Positions 2,739 through 55,480 of a stretch of DNA of 62,283 nucleotides are shown piece after piece. Every line of letters starts with the position of its first letter. Position 1 is the stretch's first letter. Source of the DNA: an uncultured Bacilli bacterium (GTDB taxonomy: Bacteria > Bacillota_I > Bacilli_A > RF39 > UBA660); NCBI GenBank assembly GCA_910587725.1, contig CAJUNG010000003.1, forward strand, positions 1 to 62,283, written 5' to 3'. The translations under genes and the position numbers were made by a program. The notes below the pieces were generated by a model. It saw nothing but the letters and a program-made list of their open reading frames with translations, was not told the origin of the DNA and did not search any database.

Positions 2739-2778
2739 CGCTTCTAGCCTACCTTCTATCTTTATTTTATCATGAAAA

Positions 2779-2806
2779 GACAAAAGAAAAAAGAGGAAAA
2801 TCCTCT
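2779..2806 (-). terminator. Rho-independent terminator of the ABC exporter operon
   Basis: Minus strand reads AGAGGAttTTCCTCT followed by TTTTTCTTTTG. The stem overlaps the TAG stop of the 2805..4778 gene. Confidence 0.6.
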
Positions 2807-4778
2807 ATTCTTCAAATTGCGAATTATAAAGTTTCGCATAAAATCCATTTTTCTTTAATAATTCATCATGTGTTCCTTGTTCGACAATATCCCCATCTTG
2901 CATTACCAAAATCAAATCAGCGTTACGAATCGTAGAAAGTCGGTGAGCAATAATAAAACTAGTTCGTCCTTGCATCAATTGGTCCATTGCCTCTTGAATT
3001 AAAAGCTCTAACCTCGTATCAACACTAGAAGTAGCTTCATCCAAAATCAAAATTTTCGGATTCTTTAAAATTACTCTCGCAATTGTTAACAATTGTTTCT
3101 GACCCTCAGAAATATTACTTGCTTCTTCATTAATTTCCATACCATAACCATCTGGTAAAGTCTTAATAAAGTGTTCAATTCGAGAAGTTCTAGCAACCGT
3201 TTCGATTTCCTCAAAAGTTGAATCTAACTTTCCATAACGAATATTATCTTCAATTGTCCCTGAAAATAACCAAGTATCTTGAAGAACCATTCCAAATAAA
3301 CTGCGAAGTTCACTTCTCGTATACTCCTGAATATTTTTGCCATCAACGGTAATCATACCTTCATCAACATCATAAAAACGCATTAATAATTTAACAATCG
3401 TCGTCTTTCCAGCCCCCGTTGGTCCAACAATCGCAATTTTTTGCCCTGGTTTTACTTTAGCACTAAAATCTTTAATGATTTTCTTATCCTCTGTATAACC
3501 GAAAGCAACCTTTTTAAACTCAACTGTTCCTTTGATTTTATCTAAATCGATATCGCCCACCTTGGTCTCTATTTCTTCTTCAGTTTCTAAAAAGGCAAAT
3601 ACCCTTTCTGCTGCTGCGGCCATAGACTGCAATAAATTAGCAATCTGAGCAATTTGAGCAATGGGTTGATTAAACTGACGAATATACTGAGAAAAAGACA
3701 AAATGTAACCAATTTCTAATTTACCTTGTATCGTTAAATAACCACCAAAAATAGAAATCATCACATATCCTAAATTCCCGATAAAACTCATAATTGGATG
3801 CATCATCCCTGATAGAAACTGACTTTTCCAAGCGGTATGATATAACTTTTCATTAGCTTCATTAAATGCCTCACGAGCTTTATCTTCTCGATTAAAAGTT
3901 TTTACAATCACATGACCTGCATAAATTTCTTCAACTTGAGAATTTACCTCTGCTAAATACTCCTGTTGCATCACAAAATACTTTTGAGAACGTCTTACTA
4001 CAAACATAATCAAAAGAAGAGAAACTGGTAAAATCAAAAGAGACGCTCCAGTTAAAATAGGAGAAATCGATAACATCATGATAATAATTCCAATCAGTGT
4101 AACAATCGAAGAAATAACTTGTGATAAACTTTGTGATAAATTATTACTTAATGTATCAATATCATTGGTTAAGATAGACAAAACTTCTCCATTAGTCCTC
4201 TCTTCAAAATATTTAAGAGGAATATGATTCATCTTAATCGATAACTCTTTTCTTAGCTTATAACTGATTCGTTCCGTAACTTCACTCATGATTAAGCTTT
4301 GGATGATAGAAAAAGAGGCACTAATAATATATAAAATGAGCAAAGTAAGCAAAATTGTCTGAATCTTATCAAAATTAATTCCCTCTCCGCCAGTAAGCTT
4401 AGAAATTAATCCTGTCGAAATTTCCGTTGTTGCACGCCCTAAAATTTTAGGACCGATAATTGAAAATACACTACTTCCAATCGCAAATAATAAACAGAAG
4501 AAAATTCCTAGGCGATATCCTTTTAAATAACGGAAAAGTTTTTTTACTGTACCTTTAAAATCATTCGCCTTCTCTCCTGGTGCCATAGGTCCTCTAGGCA
4601 TTGGTCCACTAGGCCTTTTTGGTTGTTTTTTTACTTCCTTCACTAGTTTTTGGTCTACCTTTTTTGGCTCCTCCACTTGCTTTTTTACTGTTTGCGCTTG
4701 TGGTTTTCTTTTTGCTTCCGGCATCTTTTCTTTGGCTTTCTTGCTTGCTTCTTTCTTTTGTACGTTTTCCTTTGCCAT
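2805..4778 (-). CDS. ABC exporter half-transporter (fused permease and ATPase), second subunit of a heterodimeric pair, with a Lys-rich N-terminal extension
   Basis: Six-TM region followed by Walker A GPTGAGKTT, signature SEGQKQLL and Walker B ILILDEATS. RBS AAAGGAGGAG lies 7 nt before ATG 4778. Confidence 0.9.
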   Translation of the reverse strand: MAKENVQKKEASKKAKEKMPEAKRKPQAQTVKKQVEEPKKVDQKLVKEVKKQPKRPSGPMPRGPMAPGEKANDFKGTVKKLFRYLKGYRLGIFFCLLFAIGSSVFSIIGPKILGRATTEISTGLISKLTGGEGINFDKIQTILLTLLILYIISASFSIIQSLIMSEVTERISYKLRKELSIKMNHIPLKYFEERTNGEVLSILTNDIDTLSNNLSQSLSQVISSIVTLIGIIIMMLSISPILTGASLLILPVSLLLIMFVVRRSQKYFVMQQEYLAEVNSQVEEIYAGHVIVKTFNREDKAREAFNEANEKLYHTAWKSQFLSGMMHPIMSFIGNLGYVMISIFGGYLTIQGKLEIGYILSFSQYIRQFNQPIAQIAQIANLLQSMAAAAERVFAFLETEEEIETKVGDIDLDKIKGTVEFKKVAFGYTEDKKIIKDFSAKVKPGQKIAIVGPTGAGKTTIVKLLMRFYDVDEGMITVDGKNIQEYTRSELRSLFGMVLQDTWLFSGTIEDNIRYGKLDSTFEEIETVARTSRIEHFIKTLPDGYGMEINEEASNISEGQKQLLTIARVILKNPKILILDEATSSVDTRLELLIQEAMDQLMQGRTSFIIAHRLSTIRNADLILVMQDGDIVEQGTHDELLKKNGFYAKLYNSQFEE

Positions 4779-9514: not shown

Positions 9515-10900
9515 TTAATAATCACAAGATTTTGGTGTTCTTGGAAAAGGAATCACATCACGAATATTATCAACACCAGTTAAATAAATTAAAAGACGTT
9601 CAAACCCCATACCAAATCCTGAATGATAACATCCTCCAAATTTTCTTAAATTACAGAACCAATCTACGGTATTTTGGTCAACTCCCATTTCTTTAATTCT
9701 AGTCATTAATTTATCGTAATCCTCTTCTCTTTGGGAACCTCCCATCAATTCTCCTGCACCTGGTACTTCCAAGTCTACAGCAGCAACAGTTTTTCCATCT
9801 TCATTGACTTTCATATACCACGCTTTAATCTCTTTTGGCCAATCCGTAATAAATACAGGCCCATTGAAATACTCCGTAATATAGCGTTCATGTTCTTTGG
9901 CAATATCTTCGCCATAATCTGGCATAAACTCCCATTTTACATCGGCTTTTTTCAAAATATCGACAACATCATGATGCGTAATTCGAACAAATTTAGAGCT
10001 GACTAATTTTTCTAATTTTTCCTTTAATCCTGATTCGACAAAAGAATCGAAAAATTCAATTTCTTTTGGACAATGCGTAAGCACATAAGAAACTACACTT
10101 TTTAGCATATCCTCTTCAATATCCATGAGTCCTTCTAAATCACAAAACGCAATTTCTGGTTCAATCATCCAAAATTCATTAGCATGTGTCTTCGTATTTG
10201 AGTTTTCTGTACGAAAAGTCGGTCCAAACGTATAGATTTTCTTATAACACATCGCAAAAGCTTCTCCATGAAGTTGTCCTGTTCCTGTGACATAGGCGCA
10301 TTTTCCAAACAAATCTTTAGAAAAGTCCACTTGACCTTCTTCATCTTTAGGAAGATTTTGAAAATCTAATGTCGTAATTTTAAACATTTGGTCACTTCCC
10401 TCACAATCCGTAGTCGTAATTAACGGAGTATGAACATAGACATAACCATGGCTTTGAAAATATTCATGAATTGCCATAGCACAAGCGCTTCGCACACGAA
10501 ATACAGCTCCAAAGAGATTGGTTCTTGGGCGTAAATAAGCCTGCTCTCTTAAAAATTCTCTCGTATGACGTTTCGGCTGAATCGGATAATCTTCTGGTGA
10601 ATCTCCTAAAACCTCTAGTTGTTTTAATATGACTTCAAATTCCTGTCCTTCTTTTGGAGAAGAAACCAAAGTTCCTACCACACGAATGGCAGAACCAACT
10701 CTCAATTTCTGAATTTCTAAAAAGTCTTCCAACTGGCTATCATAGACAATTTGAACATTTTGAAAATAAGTTCCATCATTAAAATCAATAAACCCAAATT
10801 CTTTCTGTTTTCGATGATTACGAACCCAACCTTCTAATACAATTTCTTTATTGACTAGAGTATCTAATTCCTTATATACTTCTACTACATCTTTTTTCAT
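9515..10900 (-). CDS. asnS: Asparagine--tRNA ligase
   Basis: Class IIb aaRS with an N-terminal OB fold and motifs FRTENSNT, GGSQREE and GFGMGFERL. Track ORF starts at GTG 10909. ATG 10900 fits the AGGTGA RBS better. Confidence 0.93.
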   Translation of the reverse strand: MKKDVVEVYKELDTLVNKEIVLEGWVRNHRKQKEFGFIDFNDGTYFQNVQIVYDSQLEDFLEIQKLRVGSAIRVVGTLVSSPKEGQEFEVILKQLEVLGDSPEDYPIQPKRHTREFLREQAYLRPRTNLFGAVFRVRSACAMAIHEYFQSHGYVYVHTPLITTTDCEGSDQMFKITTLDFQNLPKDEEGQVDFSKDLFGKCAYVTGTGQLHGEAFAMCYKKIYTFGPTFRTENSNTKTHANEFWMIEPEIAFCDLEGLMDIEEDMLKSVVSYVLTHCPKEIEFFDSFVESGLKEKLEKLVSSKFVRITHHDVVDILKKADVKWEFMPDYGEDIAKEHERYITEYFNGPVFITDWPKEIKAWYMKVNEDGKTVAAVDLEVPGAGELMGGSQREEDYDKLMTRIKEMGVDQNTVDWFCNLRKFGGCYHSGFGMGFERLLIYLTGVDNIRDVIPFPRTPKSCDY

Positions 10901-10920
10901 TCCTCTCACCTTTCTTTACA

Positions 10921-11173
10921 AACACAAAAAATCAAGATATTTATCCCTTCTGGGACGAACATCTTGAAAAGTCCGCGGTACCACCCAATTTATTACAAAA
11001 AATGTAATCGCTCAAAATCAAGATAACGGTTTAACCGGCTTATTCTACTCAAATAATTTTTTCTTTAAGCACTCAAAGGTGTTTTTCAGGTAAGTTTTTA
11101 TACTAAGTTCCACCAAGCCTTAGCTCTCTTGAATAAAAGTTCTTCCCTACTTTTCCTCATCAAACGTTTTATT
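10921..11173 (-). promoter_or_regulatory. T-box riboswitch leader (Asn specifier AAC) controlling asnS
   Basis: Minus strand contains the T-box sequence AATTGGGTGGTACCGCG (10974..10990) and stem I elements TGATGA..AGTA and AGAGAGC..GGTGGAA. The specifier-loop context GAA-a-AAC-A places AAC at 11081..11083. The terminator CAAGAT..ATCTTG is followed by ATTTTTT. Confidence 0.88.
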
Positions 11174-11246: not shown

Positions 11247-13244
11247 TTATTTTATTTTACGTTTTTGATATTCGCTTCCAAGAACTTCACAACAGAAATT
11301 ATCTAACATATCTTGTCGATGTTGTACTAATTTTGCAGATTCTTCTTGACGTTTTCTATTTGCGGCAAGAATTTCTAATCTTTCCTCTTCATACAAAGCA
11401 CTCAATTCTTTCGCAAGACTCATACTAGTTTCTTTTCTTACATCAAGAAAATCACAATACGCTTCAGCGATTCTTTGTAAATTTTGATAATAGTTCGCAA
11501 TTAGAAGATATATTGGTTGTTTTTGTTCATTAACATCTTCTTCACCAATTTTTAAAATATCTCCCTCTAACTCTGCATCTAAAATTTCATCACTACAAAA
11601 TTTAGATGCTCTATCATCAAGAACAAGTTCTCCATTTTCATATGTTGCACTCTTCTGATGCATCAAACAATATTTTAAATGAAGAAACCTTTTTAATGTG
11701 CCCTCATAAAGTCTAGCAGAACCATTTTCCAGTATAATTGGTGAATAATCAATGTCAGTAGAATCATAAGTATAAAAACTTTTTTCTACACTCATATTCT
11801 GAGCAAGTCTCATACTAACTGCCTTAGCAAATTCGGAATCTCCATATTTTACTGAGGCGATGATATCCTCATAAGTCTTCAACATTTGTTCAAAATCAAG
11901 CGAAACATTTTCAAGGCTCATTGAATTTATAATATCTTCATAAGCTTTTTGAAGGATTTCTTTAGTATAAAAGACTTGAAGTGGTGATGAAATAGTATCC
12001 TTTGCATTTTTTTCTTTAGTTTTTTCTTCCGCTATTTTATCTTTTACTTTTTCTGCAAACTCTAAAGCTTCACGACTACCATATTTAGCTACTTCTTTTT
12101 CGTAAGCTTTAAGGCTACCATATTTAGCTATTCCTTTAAGTGTTGCATTGACTGCATTAATCGTCTGCTGTTCAATTTCGGCTTGTTTTTCTTTTAATTT
12201 TTTCTCTACATCCAATTTTTTAGCTTCAATTTGTTCTTTTTCTTTAGCAATTTCTGCTTCCTTAGCCCTTAGTTTTTTTTCAGCAGCTGCTTTTTCCTCT
12301 TGAATTTTCTCTAATGCTTGTCTTCCAATCTCCTGTAAAGCCCTTTGATAATCTGCTTCTTTCTCATCCCATTCTCTATATTTACGTTCATATTCATCAC
12401 CTAAGTTATTATATGACGCTGTTTGAGCAGCCAGTTCTTTCTTAAGTAATTGATTTTTTCCTTGTACTTTTTCTTTCGCTTTTTCCAAAAGAGATGATGC
12501 CATCGTCGTAATTTGTCCTGTAGGTAAAGCTAGTTTATTCATTTTTTCTGGTTTTTTCACTTTTATTCGAGGTACCCCTATAAAAGACACCTTTTTTTCC
12601 TCATTTTCAAACATTAAATTTCCATTTTCTTCAACTAGTTTATATCCTTCTGGTAAAAGAAGTTCACTAACATTCACATCACTTTGAATATAAAAATATT
12701 GATTTCTATTAACATCTGCACCAATCACAGGTGCCATTTTGCAAACAAAACCAGGATTTAATTTCTTTAAAGATTTAATAAATTTCCCGATTGTTTCTGT
12801 ATCCGCAAATAGGTTTGTACTATTCGTAGTAGTAGCAGGTAAACAGCTAAAATCAATTTCTGTTTCTTCGAAATCGAAAAGTTCAAAAGAGTCATCGAAA
12901 GAATCTACACCCTGAACAATTACTTCTTGCTCTTTTGTTTTCTCTTGCGCTTCTGTTTCCTCAATAATTTCACGAACAGCTTCTACATCGACACATTCTT
13001 CTGGACAGTAATAAGCATCAATCGCACGTCTTGCTAATTCTAAGTGCTCTGAAAAATGATTATCTTTCCACTTTTTCATAACAATTGCTTTTTTATCCGA
13101 AGATAAGCTTGAATTTTTAAATTTATCTTCTGCATAAGCTTTACCAATTTCTTCGGCAACATCCAATTCATAATTCTCTAACAATTCCTTATCCCTCATA
13201 AGTCGAACTTGAATGGTTAGATTGTCCTTTAAATTAATTTCCAC
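11247..13244 (-). CDS. Hypothetical protein with a long K/E-rich coiled-coil centre
   Basis: Long ORF with a central AEKKLRAKEAEIAKEKEQIEAKKLDVEKKLKEKQAEIEQ region and no recognisable catalytic motif. Track start is TTG 13304. GTG 13244 follows the strong RBS AAGGGGGA at 6 nt. Confidence 0.7.
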   Translation of the reverse strand: MEINLKDNLTIQVRLMRDKELLENYELDVAEEIGKAYAEDKFKNSSLSSDKKAIVMKKWKDNHFSEHLELARRAIDAYYCPEECVDVEAVREIIEETEAQEKTKEQEVIVQGVDSFDDSFELFDFEETEIDFSCLPATTTNSTNLFADTETIGKFIKSLKKLNPGFVCKMAPVIGADVNRNQYFYIQSDVNVSELLLPEGYKLVEENGNLMFENEEKKVSFIGVPRIKVKKPEKMNKLALPTGQITTMASSLLEKAKEKVQGKNQLLKKELAAQTASYNNLGDEYERKYREWDEKEADYQRALQEIGRQALEKIQEEKAAAEKKLRAKEAEIAKEKEQIEAKKLDVEKKLKEKQAEIEQQTINAVNATLKGIAKYGSLKAYEKEVAKYGSREALEFAEKVKDKIAEEKTKEKNAKDTISSPLQVFYTKEILQKAYEDIINSMSLENVSLDFEQMLKTYEDIIASVKYGDSEFAKAVSMRLAQNMSVEKSFYTYDSTDIDYSPIILENGSARLYEGTLKRFLHLKYCLMHQKSATYENGELVLDDRASKFCSDEILDAELEGDILKIGEEDVNEQKQPIYLLIANYYQNLQRIAEAYCDFLDVRKETSMSLAKELSALYEEERLEILAANRKRQEESAKLVQHRQDMLDNFCCEVLGSEYQKRKIK

Positions 13245-13307
13245 AAAAATTCCCCCTTCAATTAATATGGCCAAAATTATACCACAACAATTCTTTTCTG
13301 TCAAGCA

Positions 13308-15257: not shown

Positions 15258-16341
15258 AATTTTTCACCTCCAAAAAATGAATCAAAATCGAATTCTCCAA
15301 ATAAAGTTTATCTTTAGGAATTCGAATAAAATCTCCTGTATCTTCTAAAAGTCCTTGATTCAACATCTCTATTATATCAAAACTTTGCTCTATTTTGCGA
15401 TGATATTTTTGAAAAAATTTTATTTTTGCAACGCCCTCTACTTTTCGAAGCCCTAAAATCATTTCATAAATCATCTGATCAGAAAGAGAAACAACTTCCT
15501 CCTCTTGTTTATAAAATCCTTTTTCATATTCATCAAGACTTCTAGTATTTGTATACCTAGTCGATAAATATCCAGAAGCACCTAACCCAAAACCATAATA
15601 TTGTTCGTTATTCCAGTATGTTAGATTATGAAAAGAAGAAAATCCTTCTTTAGAAAAATTACTGATTTCATATTGCTTATATCCATTTTCGCTCAACTTT
15701 TCTCTTAAAATTTCATACATTCTAGCATCATTCTCATCATTTAATCTTTGATATTTCGAGATAAATAATTTCGTATGTTCTTCTAAAATTAAAGAATATG
15801 TAGAAATATGCGGAACATCTAAAGATAATACATAATCTAAGTCTTCTATGAACGCAAAGATTGTCTGCCCAGAAAATCCATACATCAAATCAATATTAAT
15901 ATTAGAAAAATAAGTTTTTACTAAAAGTATATCTTCTTTAGAAACACAACGTTTTCTACCTAAAATAGATAAATAAGCATCATTTTTTGTTTCATGTCCT
16001 ATACTGATTCGATTTACCCCATGTGTTTTCAAAAAGACAAGTTTTTCTTCGGTAATATCTTCGGGATTCATCTCAAAGGTAAATTCTTGAACTTCCGATA
16101 AATCAAACATAGAAACAATTTGAAAAAGCTGTTCAAGTTCTGGTGGGTGCAAACAACTCGGAGTACCTCCACCAATATATAGTGTTCGAATCGGTTCTTT
16201 CTGATAAACTTCTTGAATTTCTTTTTTTAAGCTTTGCAAGTATCGCTCTACAAATTCACCATGATAATACATCTTACAAAAATCGCAATACGAGCAAATA
16301 GACCGGCAAAAAGGAATATGGAGATAAACACTACTAACCAT
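15250..16341 (-). CDS. hemW: Radical SAM heme chaperone HemW (HemN-like, oxygen-independent coproporphyrinogen oxidase family)
   Basis: CxxxCxxC cluster motif YLHIPFCRSICSYCDF plus the HemN C-terminal domain. Position after lepA matches Bacillus. The start overlaps the upstream stop (TAATG). Confidence 0.9.
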   Translation of the reverse strand: MVSSVYLHIPFCRSICSYCDFCKMYYHGEFVERYLQSLKKEIQEVYQKEPIRTLYIGGGTPSCLHPPELEQLFQIVSMFDLSEVQEFTFEMNPEDITEEKLVFLKTHGVNRISIGHETKNDAYLSILGRKRCVSKEDILLVKTYFSNINIDLMYGFSGQTIFAFIEDLDYVLSLDVPHISTYSLILEEHTKLFISKYQRLNDENDARMYEILREKLSENGYKQYEISNFSKEGFSSFHNLTYWNNEQYYGFGLGASGYLSTRYTNTRSLDEYEKGFYKQEEEVVSLSDQMIYEMILGLRKVEGVAKIKFFQKYHRKIEQSFDIIEMLNQGLLEDTGDFIRIPKDKLYLENSILIHFLEVKNYE

Positions 16342-16823
16342 TATCTTTTCCTAGATTTTGCTTCTTCGATGACTTCTGTATCTTTTAATTTGTCAAAACC
16401 ACTTGAACGCATTCTAAGATTATCCTGGGTAGTCTTCTCTAAAAGAGGTAATAAATCTTCATATTGAAGACGCCTAATCGTATCATAAATACTAGAAGAA
16501 GAATAACCAAAAACATCAGATAATTCTTCATAAGTCGCCCCAGTATCAATTCGATAACTAGCCATCTCTAACGCTTCAAAATCAGTAATTGCCAGTTGCC
16601 TTTTTCCCACTCTACCTCCAGCTTGTAGAGCCCTTGCAAGAACAATGTTCTGTGTCTTTTTTAATAAATGATATAAGTCAGCAGAAATAAGCACCAATTT
16701 TTTATTGATATATTTTTGAATTGTAGACTCTGATTTCTGAAAATAATCTGCCGCTTGTTTTACTGTTGTTTGATTTTCTATCATCCAACGAGCAACCTCT
16801 TGAATAAAATCTTCATTTTTCAT
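16341..16823 (-). CDS. SpoIIID-like HTH DNA-binding protein with a second C-terminal HTH
   Basis: The N-terminal segment IENQTTVKQAADYFQKSESTIQKYINKKL ... GGRVGK resembles the SpoIIID HTH plus basic region. A second HTH is ATYEELSDVFGYSSSSIYDTIRRL. RBS GGAGGAGGA is present. Confidence 0.55.
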   Translation of the reverse strand: MKNEDFIQEVARWMIENQTTVKQAADYFQKSESTIQKYINKKLVLISADLYHLLKKTQNIVLARALQAGGRVGKRQLAITDFEALEMASYRIDTGATYEELSDVFGYSSSSIYDTIRRLQYEDLLPLLEKTTQDNLRMRSSGFDKLKDTEVIEEAKSRKR

Positions 16824-19446: not shown

Positions 19447-20127
19447 TCACGATTTTTCTGGTTCTTTTTTTATTTCGCTCTGAATCACCCAACTAGCAAT
19501 CAACATTCCAGCAACTCCTGGAACAAAACTACAACTAGGAATTTCTTTACCGTTGGTTCGAATCGGCTCTTCACTACTAGCAAGAACCGTAATCTTACCA
19601 CGAATCCATTCGTCTTTCACAAACTTTCTTAAAATTCTAGCAATTGGGTCATAACTTGTTTTATCTAATGTCGTAATCATTAACTTGCTAGGGTCTAAAC
19701 GTTTTCCCGTTCCCATCGAGGTAATAAAAGGAATCTGTCGAACCTTACAATGTTTAATCATCGACTGTTTCGCCTGAATATCATCACAAGCATCAATCAC
19801 ATAATCCGGTTTATAGGTATCAAAAAGAATTGGGTCATACTTCTCCTGAATGGGAATCACCAATGTATCAGAAAAAGAAGAAATTCTTTCTTTAAATGCT
19901 TCTACTTTGCTTTTTCCTAAATTTTCTTTTGTGGCAATCAACTGACGATTAAAATTAGAAATATCCACTGTATCATAATCGACTAAAATCAAAGACCGAA
20001 CACCACTCCTTGCCAAAGATTCTGCAGCGTAACCTCCAACGCCTCCAATTCCAATAATCATCACATTGATATCACGAATCTTTGAAAAATTGCTAGATCC
20101 TATTAAGGATTCAAATCTTTCATACAT
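19447..20127 (-). CDS. tcdA: tRNA threonylcarbamoyladenosine dehydratase (ThiF/MoeB-family, YrvM/TcdA-like)
   Basis: Rossmann motif IIGIGGVGGYAAESLARSG..LILVDYDTVDISNFNRQ. ATG 20127 fits RBS GAGGTGA (track ORF extends to 20190). Confidence 0.8.
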   Translation of the reverse strand: MYERFESLIGSSNFSKIRDINVMIIGIGGVGGYAAESLARSGVRSLILVDYDTVDISNFNRQLIATKENLGKSKVEAFKERISSFSDTLVIPIQEKYDPILFDTYKPDYVIDACDDIQAKQSMIKHCKVRQIPFITSMGTGKRLDPSKLMITTLDKTSYDPIARILRKFVKDEWIRGKITVLASSEEPIRTNGKEIPSCSFVPGVAGMLIASWVIQSEIKKEPEKS

Positions 20128-20335
20128 AGCCATCACCTCAAAAATTAAAAAAATCCAGACGGACCGTTGTGTACTTGATAAAACCTGCATCTCGCAGGTG
20201 GGTACTCATAACGAAACAATCAGGATTCTTTGAATGATCAAAGCGTTCAACACATGTTCACGATTCTTCGAGTTCCCTTATCTAAAACTTAGTCGGTTTT
20301 ATAAAAGTTACACATATCGTATCCTCTAGATATTT
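20128..20335 (-). other. Candidate structured RNA (cis leader of tcdA or a small RNA); family unassigned
   Basis: Extended -10 TGcTATACT at about 20338..20346 on the minus strand. Nested helices are GATAA/TTATC, GGGAACTC/GAGTACCC, CGAAGAAUCGUGA/UCCUGAUUGUUUCG (with G-U pairs that work only on the minus strand), the terminal hairpin CTTTGAtcatTCAAAG and the side hairpin ACCTGCgagatGCAGGT. Confidence 0.3.
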
Positions 20336-20440: not shown

Positions 20441-21205
20441 ATGATTTTCAAATATAAAGATATTTCTCTCTACTATGAAAAAAAAGGAATCGGAAAAGAA
20501 GAGCTAGTAATTCTTCCTGGTTGGGGAGATACAAGACCTAGTTGGAACTTTTTGATTAATCTTTTAGCGGATTACTACACAATCTATACAGTAGATTATC
20601 CAGGGTTTGGAAATACTTCCTTCCCCTCTCACGACTTAACGATTTACGATTATACAGAATTAATTAATGCCTGGTTACAATCTCTAGAACTTACTAATCC
20701 AACACTCCTAGGTCATTCTTTTGGCGGACGAATACTAATTGCCCTTACCGGGTACTATCAATATCCATATAAAAAATTAATTCTAATGAATGCTGCAGGA
20801 ATTAAACCTAAGAAAACATTCAAAGCCAAAATAAGAACAATGTGTTATAAGTTTTTAAGAAAGTTAACGAAAATATTTCCGAAAAAAATACAAAAGAAAT
20901 GGCAAGAAAAATTATTCTCCCATTTCTCATCAGAAGACTATAAACTGTTACCGATATCAATGAGAAAAACTTTTCAAAATATCGTCAATGAAGATTTATC
21001 GATTTATTTAAAGAATATTCAAGCACAGACACTGATTCTTTGGGGAAATAATGACACTTCTACCCCAATTCATGATGCATATTTAATGAAAAAGGAAATT
21101 CCAAATGCAAGCTTAATCAGTTTCAAAAATAGTGGACATTTTCTATATTTAGAAAAATTCCAACAAACTTTAGAACAAATTGTAAAATTCGTAGAAAAAG
21201 AGTGA
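20441..21205 (+). CDS. Alpha/beta hydrolase
   Basis: Nucleophile elbow GHSFGG and a late His in SGHF. ATG 20441 follows RBS AGGTGA at 5 nt (track start GTG 20432). Confidence 0.85.
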   Translation: MIFKYKDISLYYEKKGIGKEELVILPGWGDTRPSWNFLINLLADYYTIYTVDYPGFGNTSFPSHDLTIYDYTELINAWLQSLELTNPTLLGHSFGGRILIALTGYYQYPYKKLILMNAAGIKPKKTFKAKIRTMCYKFLRKLTKIFPKKIQKKWQEKLFSHFSSEDYKLLPISMRKTFQNIVNEDLSIYLKNIQAQTLILWGNNDTSTPIHDAYLMKKEIPNASLISFKNSGHFLYLEKFQQTLEQIVKFVEKE

Positions 21206-21209
21206 AAAC

Positions 21210-22583
21210 TCATTCCACTCTTGTAATTTTAGCAAAACCGTCCCCATTATTCCCTACTTGAAAAGAAAAACCATCATGCGTCGGTTGGCCTACAAATTCT
21301 TGTTTTTCCGTCGTCCATTGATATCCTTTACCATCAATCATCATAGTATCTGTAAATCGATATCCTGAATAATGATAAGAACATTGAATATCCGTCGTTC
21401 CATCACTACAACCAGTCTTTGGCGTAATATCTTCTGCACTAGTAATCGCAACACATCCATTATGACCAGAAATATAAGAAGAGCCTCCGCCACCAGAAGG
21501 ATTGGAGTTTCCCCCATAATATCCCCCAGCACCAGGATGATAACTACGACTCCAAGAAATAGAGGCGCCAATACCAAAGCTACCACTTTTACTACCGACC
21601 TTTACAGAATTGGGTGTTGTTGCCGCCTCCCCGCCTTTTGTTTGCGTTGCCGAAGAATTAGGATACCAATAAGTATCTGTTGCATAGGAACGTAATCCTC
21701 CAGCATCTCCGCCATATTCTCCAGAACCATCAGAAAAAGTTCCTCCAGCAGCACCAGCTACCATAATTCGACTAGCAAGGGAAGAAGTCGAATTCCAAGA
21801 ATCAAGAACAAGACGAATATCAGTTGCACCACCACTTCCTGCCGCCAAAGTTAAATCCGACATCATATGACAACAGTTAAATAATTTCCCGCTTCCTCCA
21901 ACATAAACATAAAACTTACTTCCCTTAGTAAGAGAAATAATTCCTGAAGTATAAGCCCCATAAGCTGGAAATCGTAAAGTATAGGAATTATACCCGTTAT
22001 TTCCACTAGCTCCCCAAAGTTCTATCTTATAATTTCCTGAAACAGGTACGGTAAATATTTGAGGCTCCCCTGTATAAGAATAAGTAAAATATTTCGGAAC
22101 AATCTCCTGAGATAAAGAAAGTTGTCCATCTTTTAATCCTAAAGGATTAGAAACAAGTCCTGAAATCGTACCAAATTCTACTTGTACTGCTTCGTTAGAA
22201 AAATTATTAAATAAAATGGAAATCTCTTTCGTTTCCTCCCCTTGTATCACACCCGTCGTATAATCAACAGTATCCACTAAATATCCACCTTCAAAACTAC
22301 CATCACTAATATTCGTCAACAATTGATAATAAAGTTGATATTTTGTATCAATAGGATTCTTACTAATCAATTTTAAAGAAAGAGAAAAAGTAGAACGAGG
22401 GGCAACAGTAATTTGATTCACTTCACCAATTTCTAAAGAATATTCTAATTCACCCACTTGAATATCGAAAGAACCGCCCTCTATTTTATTCGAAAAAATC
22501 GCATAAGAAGAGGAAAAGAAAATTGTACAAAGGAAAATTGCACCAATACAAAAAATACCAATCACTTTACTTCGATTTTTCAA
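21210..22583 (-). CDS. Secreted protein with a TasA-like (SipW-cognate-type) N-terminus and an ALK/LTK-like glycine-rich domain
   Basis: TTG start with RBS AGGTGAG. The signal-like N-terminus ends SSSYAIFSNKIEGGSFDIQVGELEYSL (compare TasA TWAAFND...ASGTLDLS). The Gly-rich domain reads FTVPVSGNYKIELWGASGNNGY ... FYVYVGGSGK ... AGSGGATDIRL ... VAGAAGGT ... GAGGYYGG ... GNNGDGFAKIT. Confidence 0.85.
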   Translation of the reverse strand: MKNRSKVIGIFCIGAIFLCTIFFSSSYAIFSNKIEGGSFDIQVGELEYSLEIGEVNQITVAPRSTFSLSLKLISKNPIDTKYQLYYQLLTNISDGSFEGGYLVDTVDYTTGVIQGEETKEISILFNNFSNEAVQVEFGTISGLVSNPLGLKDGQLSLSQEIVPKYFTYSYTGEPQIFTVPVSGNYKIELWGASGNNGYNSYTLRFPAYGAYTSGIISLTKGSKFYVYVGGSGKLFNCCHMMSDLTLAAGSGGATDIRLVLDSWNSTSSLASRIMVAGAAGGTFSDGSGEYGGDAGGLRSYATDTYWYPNSSATQTKGGEAATTPNSVKVGSKSGSFGIGASISWSRSYHPGAGGYYGGNSNPSGGGGSSYISGHNGCVAITSAEDITPKTGCSDGTTDIQCSYHYSGYRFTDTMMIDGKGYQWTTEKQEFVGQPTHDGFSFQVGNNGDGFAKITRVE

Positions 22584-22644
22584 AAATACTCACCTAACTT
22601 CACTTTGAACATAAAACTTTGAAATCGCCTTATGATATAGAAAT

Positions 22645-22676
22645 ATTATACCCCCCCCCCCAGGCATTTTTGTCAA
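22645..22676 (-). promoter_or_regulatory. Consensus sigma-A promoter with a poly-G tract in the spacer (candidate phase-variable promoter)
   Basis: Minus strand reads TTGACA (22671..22676), aaaatgcct plus G11, then TATAAT (22645..22650). The spacer is 20 nt. The promoter lies about 60 nt upstream of TTG start 22583. Confidence 0.7.
22651..22661. repeat. 11-nt C/G homopolymer
   Basis: Eleven consecutive C on the plus strand. It is the only G/C homopolymer longer than 5 nt that I noticed in this AT-rich window. Confidence 0.95.
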
Positions 22677-22805: not shown

Positions 22806-22850
22806 ACAAAAAAAATAGATTATCCTCTTTTTGCTATAGGATATCTATTT
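22806..22850 (-). terminator. Rho-independent terminator of ftsK
   Basis: Minus strand reads AAATAGATATCCTatagcaaaaagAGGATAATCTATTT followed by TTTTTG. Confidence 0.7.
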
Positions 22851-22877
22851 TTCACTACATCACTTCTTTTAAAGCTT

Positions 22878-25289: not shown

Positions 25290-27236
25290 CTATGCCCCTA
25301 ATTCTATTTCATATGGATGTTCATATGTTCCATCCCCTGTATTATCCTTTGCAATAACAACGTTTGACTTTAGATATAGAGATGGACGAACCGCTAGTGC
25401 GGTATCTGAACTAGAATAACTTGAACTACCATACCAAAGTATATTCCTAACGAAACGTGCAGAATCTGGTGTCAATGTCCAAAAATTAATTTTTGTTCCT
25501 CTTGTAATATGACTAGTAAACATTTCTCCTATACGAGGAAGTCCTATATAAACATCTATTTCGTTAGAAAGTTTTTCACAATCTAAAGCAGAAATACCGC
25601 TATTAACCACTTGACAAATACTTGATTTATAATTTCCCCCACTAAATACAGTCCCAAAATACCAATTTTTACTCACTTCTACCATATTTTTTGCTTTATC
25701 CTCTAAGTTCGAATAATAATTATTATATATATTTGTCCTAATTCGAGCGGTTGCAAAACTTGTCTTATACTCAGCATTATCAAATTTCATTTCTCCCAAT
25801 CCACTTGGAATATCCACCGCAGTTACTTTCGTAAGCCCCTCTTCCACTCCAACAATCCGATATAATTCATTATTAAATTTTACATATTCCCCACTATATC
25901 TCGTCGAAAATAAGGTCACACCTGCTATAATCTCTTGTTCATCATCCATTAACTTAAAAGGATCCGAAATACTTCCATTTCCCGATACAATGCGAATATC
26001 GGATTTCAGATTCACAGATGGACGAATCGAATGAGCGCCTGCTGGACTATAATTCTGACTATAGTTATTCTTATTATAATCCCCTGTATCGCTCACAAAC
26101 CAAACAGTAGAGGAGGAACTTAGCGTCATCAACCACCACTGCGTACTATTATTCAAATATCCTGTAGAAGCAATTGCCATGCCCTCGGAATTATTATAGG
26201 TCGTATAATACTCGTATACATTCAAAAGTCCTACAGTTCTTTCTACTTTAGTTACTCCATTTGGTCTTATTGGCACAGAAAGAGTATTTAATCCCGTAGC
26301 ATCCCATATGAAATTTGTTACCAAGTAATCCTCATAATGATGAAGCGTTGGTAAAAACTCTTGATTTAACCATTGGTCCACAAAACTATTCTCAAAATTA
26401 GGTTGATTAACTGAATTATAAGGAATTGCCGTTATTGCATTATCCGTCACCATCTTAACAGCACCAGTTTCATTATTTTTTAATACTACTCTCCATAGTT
26501 TTCCGGAATACCAAATATAATTATTTGCACATTGTCCAACTAAAAATGTATCTACTCCATCATCATAAGTCGTACAATTCTCTCCTAAATTCTCACTTGC
26601 AAATACCTTATCTGTTGCAGGTTCTCCACTTGGTTCTGGAGTTGAAGTTGGCGTTGGATTATCAACGTCCCCCGATGTTTGCTCGATTTCTACTTTAAAA
26701 CTTAAACTTTTTCCAGCAATCCGTGCGTCATCTTCTACACTATCCTTTATCCATAAACGAAGAGCATATTCAATCGTTTGATTTCCCAAAATTACTCCAC
26801 TATTTATCGTATTATCTTGTAAATCTGAAAGTAAGTGAATAGTAACTTGTCCATCTTTTGTAAGTCCACATTTCACGTCTTCTAAGAATAGTTTCTCACC
26901 ACTAGTAATATCTGCTAGTTTCAAAATATAATTTGTGTCTTGTAAGGTTTTGTTAATTAATCGAAAAGTAAAAGCATTCCCTATCATTCCTACTTCATCA
27001 TAAGTTGGAAATGCATCTACTATCGTTAAATTATTATCATCTTCTTGTAATTCTAAAGATAAGTTACCAACATTGATGACTTGTTTCTTTGTTCCGGTTA
27101 AAGCCCGATTCGTGAAGGCATACGTAATTCCTAAGAAAACAACGAAAATACCTGTAATCAAAAGACCTACACTTACAAGTTTTTTCGTTCTATCTAATTT
27201 TTGTTGCCCACCCCCGAACGTATTTTTGTCTTCCAT
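25290..27236 (-). CDS. Secreted/surface protein with a TasA-like (SipW-cognate-type) N-terminus and two C-terminal repeats ending RPS.xLKS
   Basis: RBS AAAGGAGGAAG. The hydrophobic segment ends GITYAFTNRALTGTKKQVINVGNLSLEL. A PT-rich linker follows. Two about 190-aa repeats end in SIRPSVNLKSDIRIVSGNGSISDPF and AVRPSLYLKSNVVIAKDNTGDGTYEHPY. Confidence 0.8.
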   Translation of the reverse strand: MEDKNTFGGGQQKLDRTKKLVSVGLLITGIFVVFLGITYAFTNRALTGTKKQVINVGNLSLELQEDDNNLTIVDAFPTYDEVGMIGNAFTFRLINKTLQDTNYILKLADITSGEKLFLEDVKCGLTKDGQVTIHLLSDLQDNTINSGVILGNQTIEYALRLWIKDSVEDDARIAGKSLSFKVEIEQTSGDVDNPTPTSTPEPSGEPATDKVFASENLGENCTTYDDGVDTFLVGQCANNYIWYSGKLWRVVLKNNETGAVKMVTDNAITAIPYNSVNQPNFENSFVDQWLNQEFLPTLHHYEDYLVTNFIWDATGLNTLSVPIRPNGVTKVERTVGLLNVYEYYTTYNNSEGMAIASTGYLNNSTQWWLMTLSSSSTVWFVSDTGDYNKNNYSQNYSPAGAHSIRPSVNLKSDIRIVSGNGSISDPFKLMDDEQEIIAGVTLFSTRYSGEYVKFNNELYRIVGVEEGLTKVTAVDIPSGLGEMKFDNAEYKTSFATARIRTNIYNNYYSNLEDKAKNMVEVSKNWYFGTVFSGGNYKSSICQVVNSGISALDCEKLSNEIDVYIGLPRIGEMFTSHITRGTKINFWTLTPDSARFVRNILWYGSSSYSSSDTALAVRPSLYLKSNVVIAKDNTGDGTYEHPYEIELGA

Positions 27237-28763: not shown

Positions 28764-29165
28764 ATGGAAACAAGAAATGAATGCTGTTTTGCTAACATCT
28801 TAAAAGTCATCGATGTTCTTCAAAGGAATGCGGAAAAGTGTGAGATGGTAGAAGAAGGATGCACAAGACCATATCTTGGAAATTTCACACCACTAGATGT
28901 ATATAACACAAGACCAGTTACATTTTACACCAAATCAGGAAGTATACTAGCTCTTCCTTATACATTAAACGGAGCAAATAATACTTCTTCAGTATTTCGT
29001 GTAGAAAAAGTAAACGATTGTTGTGTAACCGTTAGGATTCTTGCACCAAATCCAGTAGTAGATGAAGCAAGAAGGTACATTTCAACCAATCAATTTGCAA
29101 AAATAAATCTAGAATGTGTATGCGTCCTACAATGCTTACCTGACACAATCGTAGAAAATATTTAA
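28764..29165 (+). CDS. Spore coat / exosporium protein, CotY/CotZ (ExsY) family, paralog 1
   Basis: Cys pattern and motifs match the B. subtilis CotY/CotZ layout: N-terminal CC..I..V..LQ, EEGCTRPYLG, TRPVTFY, SVFRVEKVNDCCVTVRIL and INLECVCVLQCL. RBS AAAGGGGGA is present. Confidence 0.8.
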   Translation: METRNECCFANILKVIDVLQRNAEKCEMVEEGCTRPYLGNFTPLDVYNTRPVTFYTKSGSILALPYTLNGANNTSSVFRVEKVNDCCVTVRILAPNPVVDEARRYISTNQFAKINLECVCVLQCLPDTIVENI

Positions 29166-29181
29166 AGGAGGTGACTTCATT

Positions 29182-29601
29182 TTGAGCTGCATAAATAAAA
29201 AAGAAAACTGCTCTTGCTTACAAGAGTTAGTAGAAACAATTATCAAATTACAAAATTGTTCAGAAAACTGTGAATTAGAATGTGGTGGATGCACAAAGCC
29301 ATTTTTAGGTCCAACACCAACTATCGTATGTTTTAACACAAGACCACTTCATCTATTCAAATGTTTCGACGGAAGCGAATGGACTCTACCTTACACCTAT
29401 AACGGAATTCCTGGAGTAAGTTCTGTTTTTAGAGCAGAATGTTTAGATGGATGTTGCGTAACTTGCAGAATTTTAATTCCTAATCCAGACACAACAAATA
29501 CCACCAATCCATACATCGCAACAGAATCTTACTTCACCATCAACTTAGATTGTGTTGGTGCCGTCTCATGTCTTCCAGACGTCGTTGTTCCAAACCTATA
29601 A
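29182..29601 (+). CDS. Spore coat / exosporium protein, CotY/CotZ (ExsY) family, paralog 2
   Basis: TTG start after RBS AAAGGAGGTGA. Starts MSC like CotY. Motifs are GGCTKPFLG, TRPLHLF, SVFRAECLDGCCVTCRIL and INLDCVGAVSCL. Confidence 0.8.
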   Translation: MSCINKKENCSCLQELVETIIKLQNCSENCELECGGCTKPFLGPTPTIVCFNTRPLHLFKCFDGSEWTLPYTYNGIPGVSSVFRAECLDGCCVTCRILIPNPDTTNTTNPYIATESYFTINLDCVGAVSCLPDVVVPNL

Positions 29602-34194: not shown

Positions 34195-35850
34195 TTAGTT
34201 TTCTTCTAAAATCACTTCTGGAGTAGTATATAAGAAACTATAGCATCCATTAGCATCTTTTTCGTTAATATCGGTATCCTTAATTTCACGCTCTACTCCA
34301 TAAAGAACATCTAAAGCATGAACAAATTTTAAAATTGCCGCTTTATCTTTCGCATTGACACGGAAACTCTTATGATTATCAGTAAATGTAAAATGGTCAT
34401 AATCAATTTTAGAAGCAATGACATAGTTATAAGGGTCATTGGTATCTTCTCCAACATTAGAATATAAATTAAGTAATATTGGATGACCATCCTTTTTATC
34501 TTCGACAAGGAAATACTCACTAAACGATTGTTTTGTCGGGTTCGTATCATTATTATTACGAACTACAGCATAAATTAAGCTAGGATAAGTCTTAATAAAG
34601 GAATCAATCGTTTCTTTAGAAATCACTTCTTCTGAATAAACCATTGGTAAGCTTTTCAAGAACACATTCATCATTCCTGCTCTAGTACCAAAAGAAATGC
34701 GTACTTGATGACGTTGCTTATTATAAGCGTAGTCAAAGATTGTATCACTAACCATACTATACATCATATTTGTATCTGTCTCATTCACTGAAGTAATTCC
34801 TGGAATTTCTCTTAAATTTCCTTGACTATCTGGGAAAATCATATAAGAAACTCCAGTTCCATCAAAAGATTTTACATAAGTGATAACAAGTTCTGAAAGT
34901 CTTTTCGCATCTGCACTCGAATAATTCTTTAAATACATTTTATTCAAATAATATTCAAAAGCAAACTCTAATTCCTCTTTATCTTTAGTCTTAAAAAACT
35001 GAAAACTAAAGAGTGTCTTTGTATAAGCATTCGCATAATTTTCTAAATTCTCACTAATCGAATAAACATAAGCATCATTATCTTCATCATACTCAACGCG
35101 AATTCCTGGCAATTTTAACTGTTGAACACTTTCCTTATTTCCTTCAATGACCATACTTTTCACGAAAGATAGAATTGTATCTTTTGAATTCGTTCCTTGA
35201 GAATAAGCAGTAATCCAGTTCATAAAGGTTTGATAGAAATTACCGTCATTCGCAGGAATCGATAAAATATTCGATACTTCATTCGGTTTTTTCTTATAAA
35301 TATTCGCTAGATATACAGAATGAGAAAGACGGAAGTTTTGTGTAGTATAAAGGAATTTCTCCTCTTCATCAACTTTCTCATAAATAGAAACATCAAAATT
35401 AATCCATACATGTCCATATTCATCTTCAACTAATAAATCTTCGACATTACAACTAAGTGCTGCTTTGGTTGTATTTTGATTTCCATCCGAATAAGTAACG
35501 GTATTATTTTTAACTTTTCCTAAAGAAGTAAGCGTAATTTTTTGACATTTAGGAATCACGACTTCATAGACATCTTCATGTTGAAAATCTCCAATCTCAT
35601 TTCTTGGGAAAGTAAACGATAACTGCATTACCTCTTCTGTTGATGCTTGATAGTTTGGTTTACTTAATGCAATTTGGTTTTCCTTATATAGCTTATATAC
35701 TCCCGTAGAAAATCCAAGAGCTCCTTCTTTTTGACTAAAGTATTTTGCTCGAGAAGGAACAAAACCAGCAAATGAGGCAACCACCACCAAGATTAAAAGC
35801 GTAAGAAATAAATAAAACTTTTTAGAATTTTGCCCTTTTCTTTTGAACAT
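34195..35850 (-). CDS. Secreted protein of the SipW/TasA-like locus (551 aa, no known domain)
   Basis: RBS AAAGGAGGGA. N-terminal K-rich n-region plus a hydrophobic segment ending ...SFAGFVPSRAKYFSQKEGALGF, the same motif class as the neighbouring subunits. Confidence 0.8.
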   Translation of the reverse strand: MFKRKGQNSKKFYLFLTLLILVVVASFAGFVPSRAKYFSQKEGALGFSTGVYKLYKENQIALSKPNYQASTEEVMQLSFTFPRNEIGDFQHEDVYEVVIPKCQKITLTSLGKVKNNTVTYSDGNQNTTKAALSCNVEDLLVEDEYGHVWINFDVSIYEKVDEEEKFLYTTQNFRLSHSVYLANIYKKKPNEVSNILSIPANDGNFYQTFMNWITAYSQGTNSKDTILSFVKSMVIEGNKESVQQLKLPGIRVEYDEDNDAYVYSISENLENYANAYTKTLFSFQFFKTKDKEELEFAFEYYLNKMYLKNYSSADAKRLSELVITYVKSFDGTGVSYMIFPDSQGNLREIPGITSVNETDTNMMYSMVSDTIFDYAYNKQRHQVRISFGTRAGMMNVFLKSLPMVYSEEVISKETIDSFIKTYPSLIYAVVRNNNDTNPTKQSFSEYFLVEDKKDGHPILLNLYSNVGEDTNDPYNYVIASKIDYDHFTFTDNHKSFRVNAKDKAAILKFVHALDVLYGVEREIKDTDINEKDANGCYSFLYTTPEVILEEN

Positions 35851-35867
35851 ACAAATCCCTCCTTTAA

Positions 35868-36389
35868 TTAATCTCTTTGCTCTGCTTTATAGCTAACTGA
35901 AACAACTGGTTCAGTATAAGTTTTTCCTGTATCTTCTCCTTGATACATAATGACTAAGTGATAATCCTTAACCTTACCCTCACCAGCAAAAACAATTTCT
36001 TCTGGTAGAGAATATTCATTTACCCCACTAGGAATCTTCATATCATTTAATGTGAGCATCTGAAAATCTTCTTGGACACGAATCACCAATTGAAAATCCG
36101 ACGTAACATCTAATTTTGAGGTATCTACAGAAAAGTCATATTCAATCTTACTATTCGGTCGAAACAATCCAGAGTTACAAACGTTATTGCTATTGACTTC
36201 TCCCTTACAGTTCTTAGGAAGAACAGCAACTTCGAAACTAGCAACCCGAGAATCACTCGCTTCTTCAAATCGAGAAATATAACGAGAATAAGTAACTACC
36301 GCCGTAAACAGTAACATCACTCCAACATACATCGTCAACCACCGATAAAAGCGACGCCTGAATTTTTGACTAAAAAATAGTTTTTTCAA
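35868..36389 (-). CDS. Small TasA/BsaA-class subunit-like protein (173 aa)
   Basis: TTG start 4 nt after GAGGT. The N-terminus ...TAVVTYSRYISRFEEASDSRVASFEV parallels TYARYTSTFTGTSSARVAKWAF of the 40287..40991 product. A small beta-rich body follows. Confidence 0.75.
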   Translation of the reverse strand: MKKLFFSQKFRRRFYRWLTMYVGVMLLFTAVVTYSRYISRFEEASDSRVASFEVAVLPKNCKGEVNSNNVCNSGLFRPNSKIEYDFSVDTSKLDVTSDFQLVIRVQEDFQMLTLNDMKIPSGVNEYSLPEEIVFAGEGKVKDYHLVIMYQGEDTGKTYTEPVVSVSYKAEQRD

Positions 36390-36396
36390 TCGAACC

Positions 36397-37455
36397 TCAC
36401 AACCTTTCTAACTCTTCTATCTCTTCTAAAAGTTCTACTTCCTTTTGTACTTTCAAGTAAGCATTCTTCGTAAAAAGATAGACACGTCTTTGTTTTTTAT
36501 AAGCATCTTGAATTCGTGATAATTTTTTATATGCGCCAATATAAGCATTCTTTGCCCGAATACAATCATGATAAGCTTTCATATAAAGATTTTTAGAAGT
36601 CTTATGAAGTTCATAAACCTCTTTTTGATAAAGATATACTTCTTTAGAGCTTAAATAAGTAATCTTGGTTTGTGCATAACGATTTTTAACTTCTAAGTAA
36701 ACTTTTTTAATTTGTAAGTAAATCTCTTCTACTCGCTTATAATCATTCTTTAATTGCAAATATCTCTTTTTCAAGTATGGGTCCTTGTTCTTTTCTAGTA
36801 ACAATTCACCCCTTGCAAATGTCGAACGAGGAATAATCATCGTATTTTCTGTGAAATCAGGAAAATCAGAATACTCAGGTTCAGCTTTCAAAGAAGCACT
36901 CTCTTGTTTTTTCTTTTGTTCTTTAAACTCGTAAAACGCTTCTTCTTCTGGGTCTAGAATCGGGTTTCCATCTTTATCAATGCTAAGAAAGATACAAACG
37001 ATAACACCGATAATAAAAATCATCCCGATAACAAATGGATTTCTAAATGATGCGAGAAGCCTTCCCATTCCATTTAGACGAAATAAGTATTTTCCTCGTA
37101 AACTACTTCTTGGCATAGCGTCATCAGAAGAATCATTGGCATCTCCCTTCGTAACCATCTGATCATCATCAATTTTCTCTATCCGGTGAGTGACAAAGGA
37201 CCCGTCGACATCTTTAAAGGTTACGATATCTCCCTTTTGATAATGGGAGGCATTTCGATTAATCACAATCAAATCTCCCACATGAATAGACGGCTCCATC
37301 GAACCAGATACAACTTCCAAAACGGAATAACCGAAAAAGGAAGGAAGTTCTTGATGAAATAGATGAATCGATACAAAGTTGTAAAGATTAAAAGCAAGAA
37401 GGGAAAATAAGACCAGACAAAGGAGACCAATTCCTATTTTCTTGATGATTTTCAT
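36397..37455 (-). CDS. sipW: SipW-type (ER/archaeal-type, S26B) signal peptidase I with a 190-aa C-terminal coiled-coil tail (paralog 2)
   Basis: TM1, catalytic Ser in VVSGSMEPS, His in FVTHRI, TKGDAN and TM2 (FVIGMIFIIGVIVCIFL). Residues 161-352 are a non-peptidase tail with heptad-periodic Tyr. Confidence 0.85.
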   Translation of the reverse strand: MKIIKKIGIGLLCLVLFSLLAFNLYNFVSIHLFHQELPSFFGYSVLEVVSGSMEPSIHVGDLIVINRNASHYQKGDIVTFKDVDGSFVTHRIEKIDDDQMVTKGDANDSSDDAMPRSSLRGKYLFRLNGMGRLLASFRNPFVIGMIFIIGVIVCIFLSIDKDGNPILDPEEEAFYEFKEQKKKQESASLKAEPEYSDFPDFTENTMIIPRSTFARGELLLEKNKDPYLKKRYLQLKNDYKRVEEIYLQIKKVYLEVKNRYAQTKITYLSSKEVYLYQKEVYELHKTSKNLYMKAYHDCIRAKNAYIGAYKKLSRIQDAYKKQRRVYLFTKNAYLKVQKEVELLEEIEELERL

Positions 37456-37469
37456 AAGAATCTACTCTC

Positions 37470-55384: not shown

Positions 55385-55480
55385 AAAAATCATCCCCTAT
55401 TCTTTTTACTTTTCTAGTATAAAAAAAAGAGAGGAAAAATTTTGTCGAAAAAAAAGAAAAACCGTTAAAATTTTTCTTTC

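Follow-up and report, generated by a model that had tools for sequence, protein, structure and literature searches.

A poly-G tract in a promoter spacer as a probable contingency switch for a glycine-rich-domain protein gene in an uncultured Bacilli bacterium

We describe a sigma-A-type promoter, upstream of a gene for a glycine-rich-domain (GRD) protein, whose spacer holds a G tract that we propose to be hypermutable, so that transcription would depend on tract length either as phase variation or as a rheostat. We give this reading a probability of roughly 58%. Judged by its sequence, the site probably belongs with the transcriptional contingency loci of the porA/fetA/tp0126 type; phase variation at this promoter is a well-founded inference, and it is the switching itself that we infer. 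In the proposed mechanism, slipped-strand mispairing during replication would add or remove G's, the gap separating the −35 box from the −10 box would shift with the tract (20 nt at G11, 19 nt at G10 and 17 nt at G8) and promoter strength would follow spacer length. The expected outcome would be a population that is mostly weak or OFF, with a minority of cells carrying stronger promoters, for a protein that is secreted or exposed at the surface. The mechanism takes RNA polymerase to use the hexamers that flank the poly-G, takes spacers of 19–20 nt to be weak and those of 17–18 nt to be strong at this promoter, and presumes that shorter tract alleles arise and are selected.

Results

Structure of the promoter

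The stretch of DNA analysed here (the window) is a chromosomal segment of 62,283 nt and 33% GC. A sequence-only reading had placed two perfect hexamers with a 20-nt spacer at 22645–22676, and both the arrangement and the coordinates proved exact. On the minus strand TTGACA is followed by the non-repetitive AAAATGCCT, the G11 tract and TATAAT (Table 1), so that both hexamers match the sigma-A consensus perfectly and the −35/−10 spacer of the GRD-gene promoter measures 20 nt. The end of AAAATGCCT and the first G's of the tract together form CCTGG across their junction, and the first T of the −10 box TATAAT is at the same time the last letter of a GnT motif. As GnT motifs are T-to-G hotspots (PMC12344412), the promoter would have a second and non-reversible route to inactivation, and the T kept at this junction suggests purifying selection on the −10 box. 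The TTG start codon lies 61 nt 3′ of the end of the −10 box, in line with the earlier statement that the site sits about 60 nt upstream of the TTG start and AGGTGA ribosome-binding site (RBS) of 21210..22583. Transcription would be expected to start at about 22638.

Table 1. Positions of the promoter elements, the gene they are proposed to control and the related cassette copies. Coordinates refer to the window unless a contig is named.
Feature	Position	Strand	Remarks
−35 hexamer TTGACA	22671..22676	−	Perfect sigma-A consensus; invariant in 4/4 aligned copies
Non-repetitive spacer portion AAAATGCCT	22662..22670	−	Identical in L002 and at the unrelated L001 locus; AAAACGCCA in L003
G11 homopolymer, proposed slippage-prone element	22651..22661	−	Read from the window sequence; C11 on the plus strand; G10 in the orthologues L002 and L003
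−10 hexamer TATAAT	22645..22650	−	Perfect consensus; TATGAT in L002, CATAAT in L003, TATACT in L001
Predicted 5′UTR	22584..22644	−	RBS AGGTGA at 22590–22595; start codon TTG at 22583–22581
Controlled gene, 457-aa GRD protein	21210..22583	−	Hydrophobic N-terminal helix, PF12810, AF2 model
Intrinsic terminator of upstream ftsK	22808..22853	−	AT-rich hairpin followed by U8
GNAT cassette copies	L001:4211–4250; L024/L025:1432–1471; L026:1–38		G10; G11 in L026

A run-length count over all 62,283 nt of the window identified no G/C homopolymer above 6 nt other than the G11 tract. The second-longest G/C run is one C6 at 51703–51708 and the remainder are 5 nt or shorter; the earlier description of the tract as the only G/C homopolymer above 5 nt had overlooked this C6, and it is correct for runs above 6 nt. 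Extrapolation of the run-length distribution, with an extension factor of 0.20 per base, gives an expectation of 0.0016 G/C runs of at least 11 nt in the window. Perfect pairs of the form TTGACA-N15-21-TATAAT are likewise few, with 2 observed versus 0.23 expected. The other pair, at 13276–13304 on the minus strand, is spaced by 17 nt and its −10 box is TG-extended (TGGTATAAT); the pair lies at the 5′ end of a mechanical ORF (11247–13304) whose true start is probably further downstream.

The upstream ftsK gene ends in its own terminator, which folds at −14.9 kcal/mol (z −3.4) and as well as which none of 200 shuffled sequences folds, so the GRD gene needs a promoter of its own. The terminator is predicted to insulate the poly-G promoter from read-through. 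A consensus scan with 16–18-nt spacers found no other promoter candidate on the minus strand from the ftsK terminator down to the start codon; its sole hit (22847–22819) falls inside the terminator stem, and the poly-G site, with a spacer of 20 nt as assembled, was not called by it. The tract is therefore flanked by the two boxes of the only promoter-like site of the gene, as read from the sequence and with the transcription start placed by prediction. A known RNA element in the leader was rejected after an Rfam search gave no family match there. We also rejected a coding (translational) tract in the window, where stop codons precede the TTG in all frames at tract lengths from 7 to 14; a tract inside the GRD reading frame was found only in a distant homologue, which is described below.

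Conservation in orthologous promoters

Two close relatives of the GRD gene were compared, L002 (JGI 3300006217) and L003 (ENA ERZ14425211). Orthologous promoters had been named as one place to look for the same tract, and both contigs have it as G10. In L002, where the coding sequence (CDS) is 95.9% identical to the window gene in nucleotides and 97% in amino acids, the core reads TTGACA-AAAATGCCT-G10-TATGAT and agrees with the window at 30 of 32 positions. Homology to the window begins only 7 nt upstream of the −35 box, the 60 nt further upstream being unrelated, and the 5′UTR is 63% identical versus 96% for the CDS. This upstream swap and the difference between 5′UTR and CDS indicate that the locus is a recombination mosaic. 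Where the window has ftsK, L002:1–1250 carries a Fic-domain gene and the 3′ end of a second GRD paralogue, and the paralogue fragment shows 86% nucleotide identity to window positions 21192–21494.

The CDS of L003 is 86% identical to that of the window, on a contig with 2.1x coverage. Its core reads TTGACA-AAAACGCCA-G10-CATAAT, with a tract free of substitutions and flanks that have three; the T-to-A change in the spacer preserves CCWGG at the junction. A frameshift lies in the 5′ part of the CDS (L003:230–300), and the called protein begins at an internal Met (401 aa). At this coverage the frameshift may be a sequencing error rather than the mark of a pseudogene. The persistence of the core and of an uninterrupted G tract in both relatives, despite diverged or unrelated flanks, argues that the promoter core has been retained as a unit. 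By our own estimate the purity of the tract over 14% divergence has a P of about 0.2 under neutrality, which is weak evidence of selection. One Logan contig encodes a protein identical to the window GRD protein, and related NCBI contigs carry P0255 and P0257; the related contigs include one of 61,956 nt from NCBI and one of 9,139 nt with FtsK.

The same cassette at a second locus

A scan of 185,579 representative genomes for TTGACAAAAATGCCT followed by at least 7 G's returned one match, on CANQAQ010000010 (L001), from a rabbit-gut metagenome-assembled genome labelled 'uncultured Bacilli' (GCA_947589275.1). About 0.07 chance occurrences of the 22-mer would be expected in 596 Gb (our arithmetic, for uniform composition), and a match by chance is unlikely. 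The L001 cassette, TTGACA-AAAATGCCT-G10-TATACT, comes after a tRNA-Lys gene and its hairpin and precedes, by about 30 nt, the RBS and ATG of the gene for a cytoplasmic GNAT acetyltransferase, a product that is atypical of contingency genes. Similarity to the window is confined to 39 nt, and the DNA of L001 has 25% GC versus 33% in the window. Contigs that encode the identical GNAT protein have tract lengths of G10, G10 and G11, of which the G11 copy (L026, 4.8x coverage) calls for caution, since it lies 22 nt from the contig end and those 22 nt contain three suspicious mismatches.

More distant GNAT orthologues have the same hexamers and no tract. A 73%-identical orthologue (ten contigs) reads TTGACA-AAAAATTTTATAAAATA-TATACT and a 75%-identical one TTGACA-TTTTTCTTTAAAAGAAA-TATACT, both with 17-nt spacers; AAAAATTTTATAAAATA and TTTTTCTTTAAAAGAAA are two different AT-rich sequences between identical hexamers. 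That these orthologues keep the hexamers at exactly 17 nt supports the hexamers as a real promoter position and indicates that 17 nt is the spacing selected in this lineage, as the sequence-only reading had assumed when it named 17 nt as optimal. By the same measure, the G-tract version is 2–3 nt too long.

Searches beyond these genomes gave little. An exact-pattern scan of metagenome contigs for TTGACAAAAAYGCCWGGGGG found only five chance G5 matches (L004–L008) and an exact-pattern scan of viral contigs found no match, while blastn with the 71-nt region found nothing in plasmids and one insignificant 24-nt match in phages (E 0.2). A scan for GCCT-G10-TATA gave one match, in an unrelated phage contig of 56% GC (L037:2202–2219; IMG/VR UViG 2899452337_000002). 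On the opposite strand of L037 the match is a C10 tract located 13 nt inside a small ORF divided between two frames, and it lies just upstream of an ORF (2355–3347) that by eye resembles a cytosine-C5 DNA methyltransferase. This tract probably represents either a coding poly-C switch of its own or a frameshift in the assembly.

Tract lengths

Homopolymers slip when they are uninterrupted and about 7–8 nt or longer, and runs of 10–11 G's are intrinsically prone to slippage; the tract is an uninterrupted G11 in the window and G10 in the orthologues. Sigma-70 and sigma-A promoters work well with spacers of 17–18 nt and poorly with spacers of 19–20 nt. Between contigs the tract measures 11, 10 and 10 nt at the GRD locus (window, L002 and L003) and 10, 10 and 11 nt at the GNAT locus, a variation of only ±1 in which some of the contigs have low coverage. 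The differences between 10 and 11 could be homopolymer consensus errors, partly from contigs of 2–5x coverage (L003 and L026). The seven assembled copies come from five or six independent samples, and in all of them (7/7) the tract is G10 or G11, with spacers of 19–20 nt. The earlier suggestion of a phase-variable promoter is partly supported, by the position of the promoter and the conserved core, and the 11-versus-10 lengths may fit it too, but the G7–G9 range that it pointed to is not represented: there is no G7–G9 allele and no 17–18-nt spacer among the seven assembled tract copies at the two loci. A spacing of 17 nt is 2–3 deletions away from the assembled lengths. Classical contingency loci are usually one step from ON.

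Gene product

The gene had been thought to encode a secreted glycine-rich protein, and its predicted features agree. They comprise an N-terminal hydrophobic helix (residues 2–32), a beta-rich N-terminal module and an ALK/LTK-type glycine-rich domain (residues 182–454), the last coinciding with a Pfam PF12810 match of 136.2 bits (gathering cut-off 24.5; E 2.4e-39). A plain sequence search of the PDB with the GRD protein gave no match. When its AF2 model (pLDDT 78) was compared with the PDB, the best 21 fold matches were all ALK/LTK TG/GRD structures (probability 1.0, E 3e-8 to 2.5e-6) with modest TM-scores of 0.24–0.43, and the modelled fold is of the TNF-like plus poly-glycine (TG/GRD) kind. 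These predictions give good support to a membrane-anchored or secreted product of the ALK/LTK glycine-rich-domain type. Phase-variable loci typically, and not obligatorily, encode surface-exposed or secreted products, and the predicted features of the GRD protein place it among these. The beta-rich N-terminal module is weakly shared with a neighbouring secreted DUF6273 protein (25290–27236).

G tracts in other family members

A poly-G tract as a general feature of GRD promoters was rejected, as no G/C run of at least 7 nt occurs in the homologue groups P0005 (five contigs), P0013, P0042 (five contigs), P0063 and P0004. The upstream regions of the L017 and L022 GRD genes were read closely and have ordinary promoters. 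In L009 (Logan SRR32634112), which encodes a 48%-identical GRD homologue, a G11 tract at 386–396 begins 31 nt after an ATG. This ATG (355) has a good RBS, AAGGTG, 8 nt upstream, and is separated from the end of the upstream gene by 21 nt, a gap that leaves no room for a promoter. With G9 or G12 the ATG would be in frame with the annotated ORF, and with G11 as assembled it is out of frame (355–411). The L009 tract looks like an independent translational G-tract switch in the GRD family. Its flank, ACAAAAATAGCTA-G11, is oddly like ACAAAAATGCCT-G11 in the window.

Discussion

Alternative explanations

The over-long spacer might itself be the working state of a promoter of fixed length, with slippage as incidental noise. 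Expression would then be permanently low, or would need a factor that untwists or bends the DNA in the manner of MerR, or one that reads GCCWGG-Gn. We consider this unlikely, even though every copy at the two loci, which belong to two genera, has G10 or G11, AAAATGCCT recurs unchanged across unrelated genes and genomes while spacer sequence otherwise varies freely, and the T-to-A change of L003 retains CCWGG at the junction. Spacers of 19–20 nt are a hallmark of MerR-type promoters, and good hexamers at that distance are what the GRD locus has in common with the MerR-family promoters merT, zntA and bmr. Those promoters, however, combine a palindromic operator in the spacer with a MerR regulator that is adjacent or dedicated. 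At the GRD locus neither the spacer nor its surroundings show dyad symmetry, and a MerR-type operator was rejected for want of an inverted repeat; no regulator gene is adjacent, the immediate neighbours being ftsK and an alpha/beta hydrolase gene, and no MerR-family regulator is encoded nearby (FtsK, alpha/beta hydrolase, 6S RNA, ThiF and LexA). CCWGG occurs 42 times in the window versus 36 ± 6 expected, neither a deficit nor an excess, and the idea of methylation or restriction at CCWGG was dropped for lack of such a compositional signal. A constant length would, moreover, be physically impossible for a run of 10–11 G's in a large population. A related and similarly doubtful proposal is that TTGACA-AAAATGCCW-G10/11-TATA is either a portable hypermutable cassette that recombination or lateral transfer carries to unrelated genes and across Bacilli genera (33% and 25% GC), or is kept nearly identical by a dedicated factor that reads GCCWGG-Gn, with 19–20 nt as the regulated working state.

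The tract could also be a neutral or slightly deleterious accident, in which a G run expanded, for example by T-to-G change at GnT together with slippage, and crippled the promoter of a decaying or dispensable gene. Each observed tract length is predicted to give a weak promoter, the L003 CDS is frameshifted, L009 is out of frame as assembled, and GnT motifs are T-to-G hotspots that extend G tracts at high rates (PMC12344412). An accident nevertheless sits poorly with intact coding sequences in the window and L002 (96% nucleotide and 97% amino-acid identity), with perfect hexamers that have been kept, and with a tract that is uninterrupted in lineages 14% diverged and in genomes of 25–33% GC; the L003 frameshift, for its part, is in a contig of 2x coverage. 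We regard it as improbable. Far less credible is a sequencing or assembly artefact, such as the poly-G known from two-channel (two-colour) Illumina chemistry, which we rejected. The L026 copy adjoins a contig end, but elsewhere the tract is internal to long contigs, and independent NCBI, JGI and ENA assemblies agree on its position and have matching unique flanks.

Comparison with known systems

The length-dependent switch that we favour is of a known kind; what is unusual and mildly novel is that a near-identical 39-nt cassette precedes unrelated genes in two genera. In Mycoplasma hyorhinis, a low-GC relative of the Firmicutes, the surface lipoprotein genes vlp have poly-A in the −35/−10 spacer, and a conserved promoter cassette is reused before several genes. 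The vlp system differs from the present one in having poly-A and a cassette common to paralogues within one genome, and not to unrelated genes of two genera.

Tracts in promoter spacers had been put forward as an established mechanism, and the literature agrees, with T. pallidum tp0126 (PMC7864442) and gonococcal fetA and porA (PMC5320596) as examples. In fetA (gonococcal poly-C) and porA, the length of the tract between the −35 and −10 boxes sets the transcription of surface proteins (PMC5320596, PMC7864442). Neisseria porA (poly-G) and fetA/frpB (poly-C) thus share with the GRD locus a G/C homopolymer in the promoter spacer of a surface-protein gene. They differ from it in that the hosts are Gram-negative pathogens, switching and expression have been measured, and the common alleles are at the optimum or one step from it, whereas the GRD locus belongs to an uncultured low-GC Bacilli commensal, has spacers of 19–20 nt only and is known from its sequence.

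The tp0126 promoter of T. pallidum has its poly-G tract between the −35 and −10 elements and works best at 17 nt; for tprL, G8 is active and G10 near background, and most cells in vivo have the low-expression length (PMC7864442). Since the low-expression allele can be the majority there, an assembled consensus in the OFF range is compatible with phase variation at the GRD promoter. More generally, tp0126 and the tpr genes E, G, J and L resemble the GRD locus in having poly-G of about 7–12 nt in or next to promoters of putative surface proteins, G8 or fewer being permissive (PMC7864442). They differ in belonging to a spirochaete, in that several tpr tracts lie upstream of the transcription start and not strictly in the spacer, and in that heterogeneity was established by fragment analysis. 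Bifidobacterium breve provides a G-tract slippage switch for a sortase pilus in a gut commensal (PMC9187656). This switch resembles the coding tract of L009 and differs from the GRD promoter in being intragenic (translational) and in an actinobacterium.

Contingency loci driven by simple sequence repeats have been amply described in pathogens such as Neisseria, Haemophilus, Campylobacter, Treponema and mycoplasmas; in uncultured gut Firmicutes and Bacilli they are, to our knowledge, little charted. If confirmed, the GRD promoter would be a clean example of promoter-spacer contingency in a spore-forming commensal, and would mark an uncharacterised bacterial family of ALK/LTK-type GRD surface proteins as a probable host- or phage-exposed antigen. 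The 39-nt cassette at the GNAT locus and the coding G11 of L009 point to repeated use of G tracts for regulation in this lineage, and the cassette and coding G tracts provide simple sequence signatures for mining 'phasomes' in metagenomes.

Genomic context

The region contains further genes for secreted proteins. On the minus strand at 34195–40193, an S24/S26-like peptidase (36397–37455) is surrounded by large secreted proteins of 551 aa, 173 aa and 907 aa, the last of them cadherin-like. This cluster recalls sipW-tasA-type operons, and also the Peptidase_S26-DUF5305-GRD-GRD operon of the relative L022, in which a Peptidase_S26 gene and a DUF5305 gene precede two GRD genes. The signal peptides of the GRD and DUF6273 proteins are unusual, and the S24/S26-like peptidase may be what processes them.

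Two structured RNAs were located on the minus strand. A 6S RNA gene (20148–20335) lies between the alpha/beta hydrolase and ThiF genes, with its 3′ part overlapped by a mechanical ORF (19447–20190), and a T-box leader (10948–11173) lies upstream of a class II aminoacyl-tRNA synthetase gene (9515–10909). Together with these RNAs the window carries LexA, LepA, PriA, CotZ, SpoIIID and SirA. The sporulation genes among them (16341–16823, 28764–29601 and 54959–55393), for a SpoIIID-like protein, two CotZ-like spore-coat proteins and SirA, point to an endospore-forming member of the Bacilli as the host.
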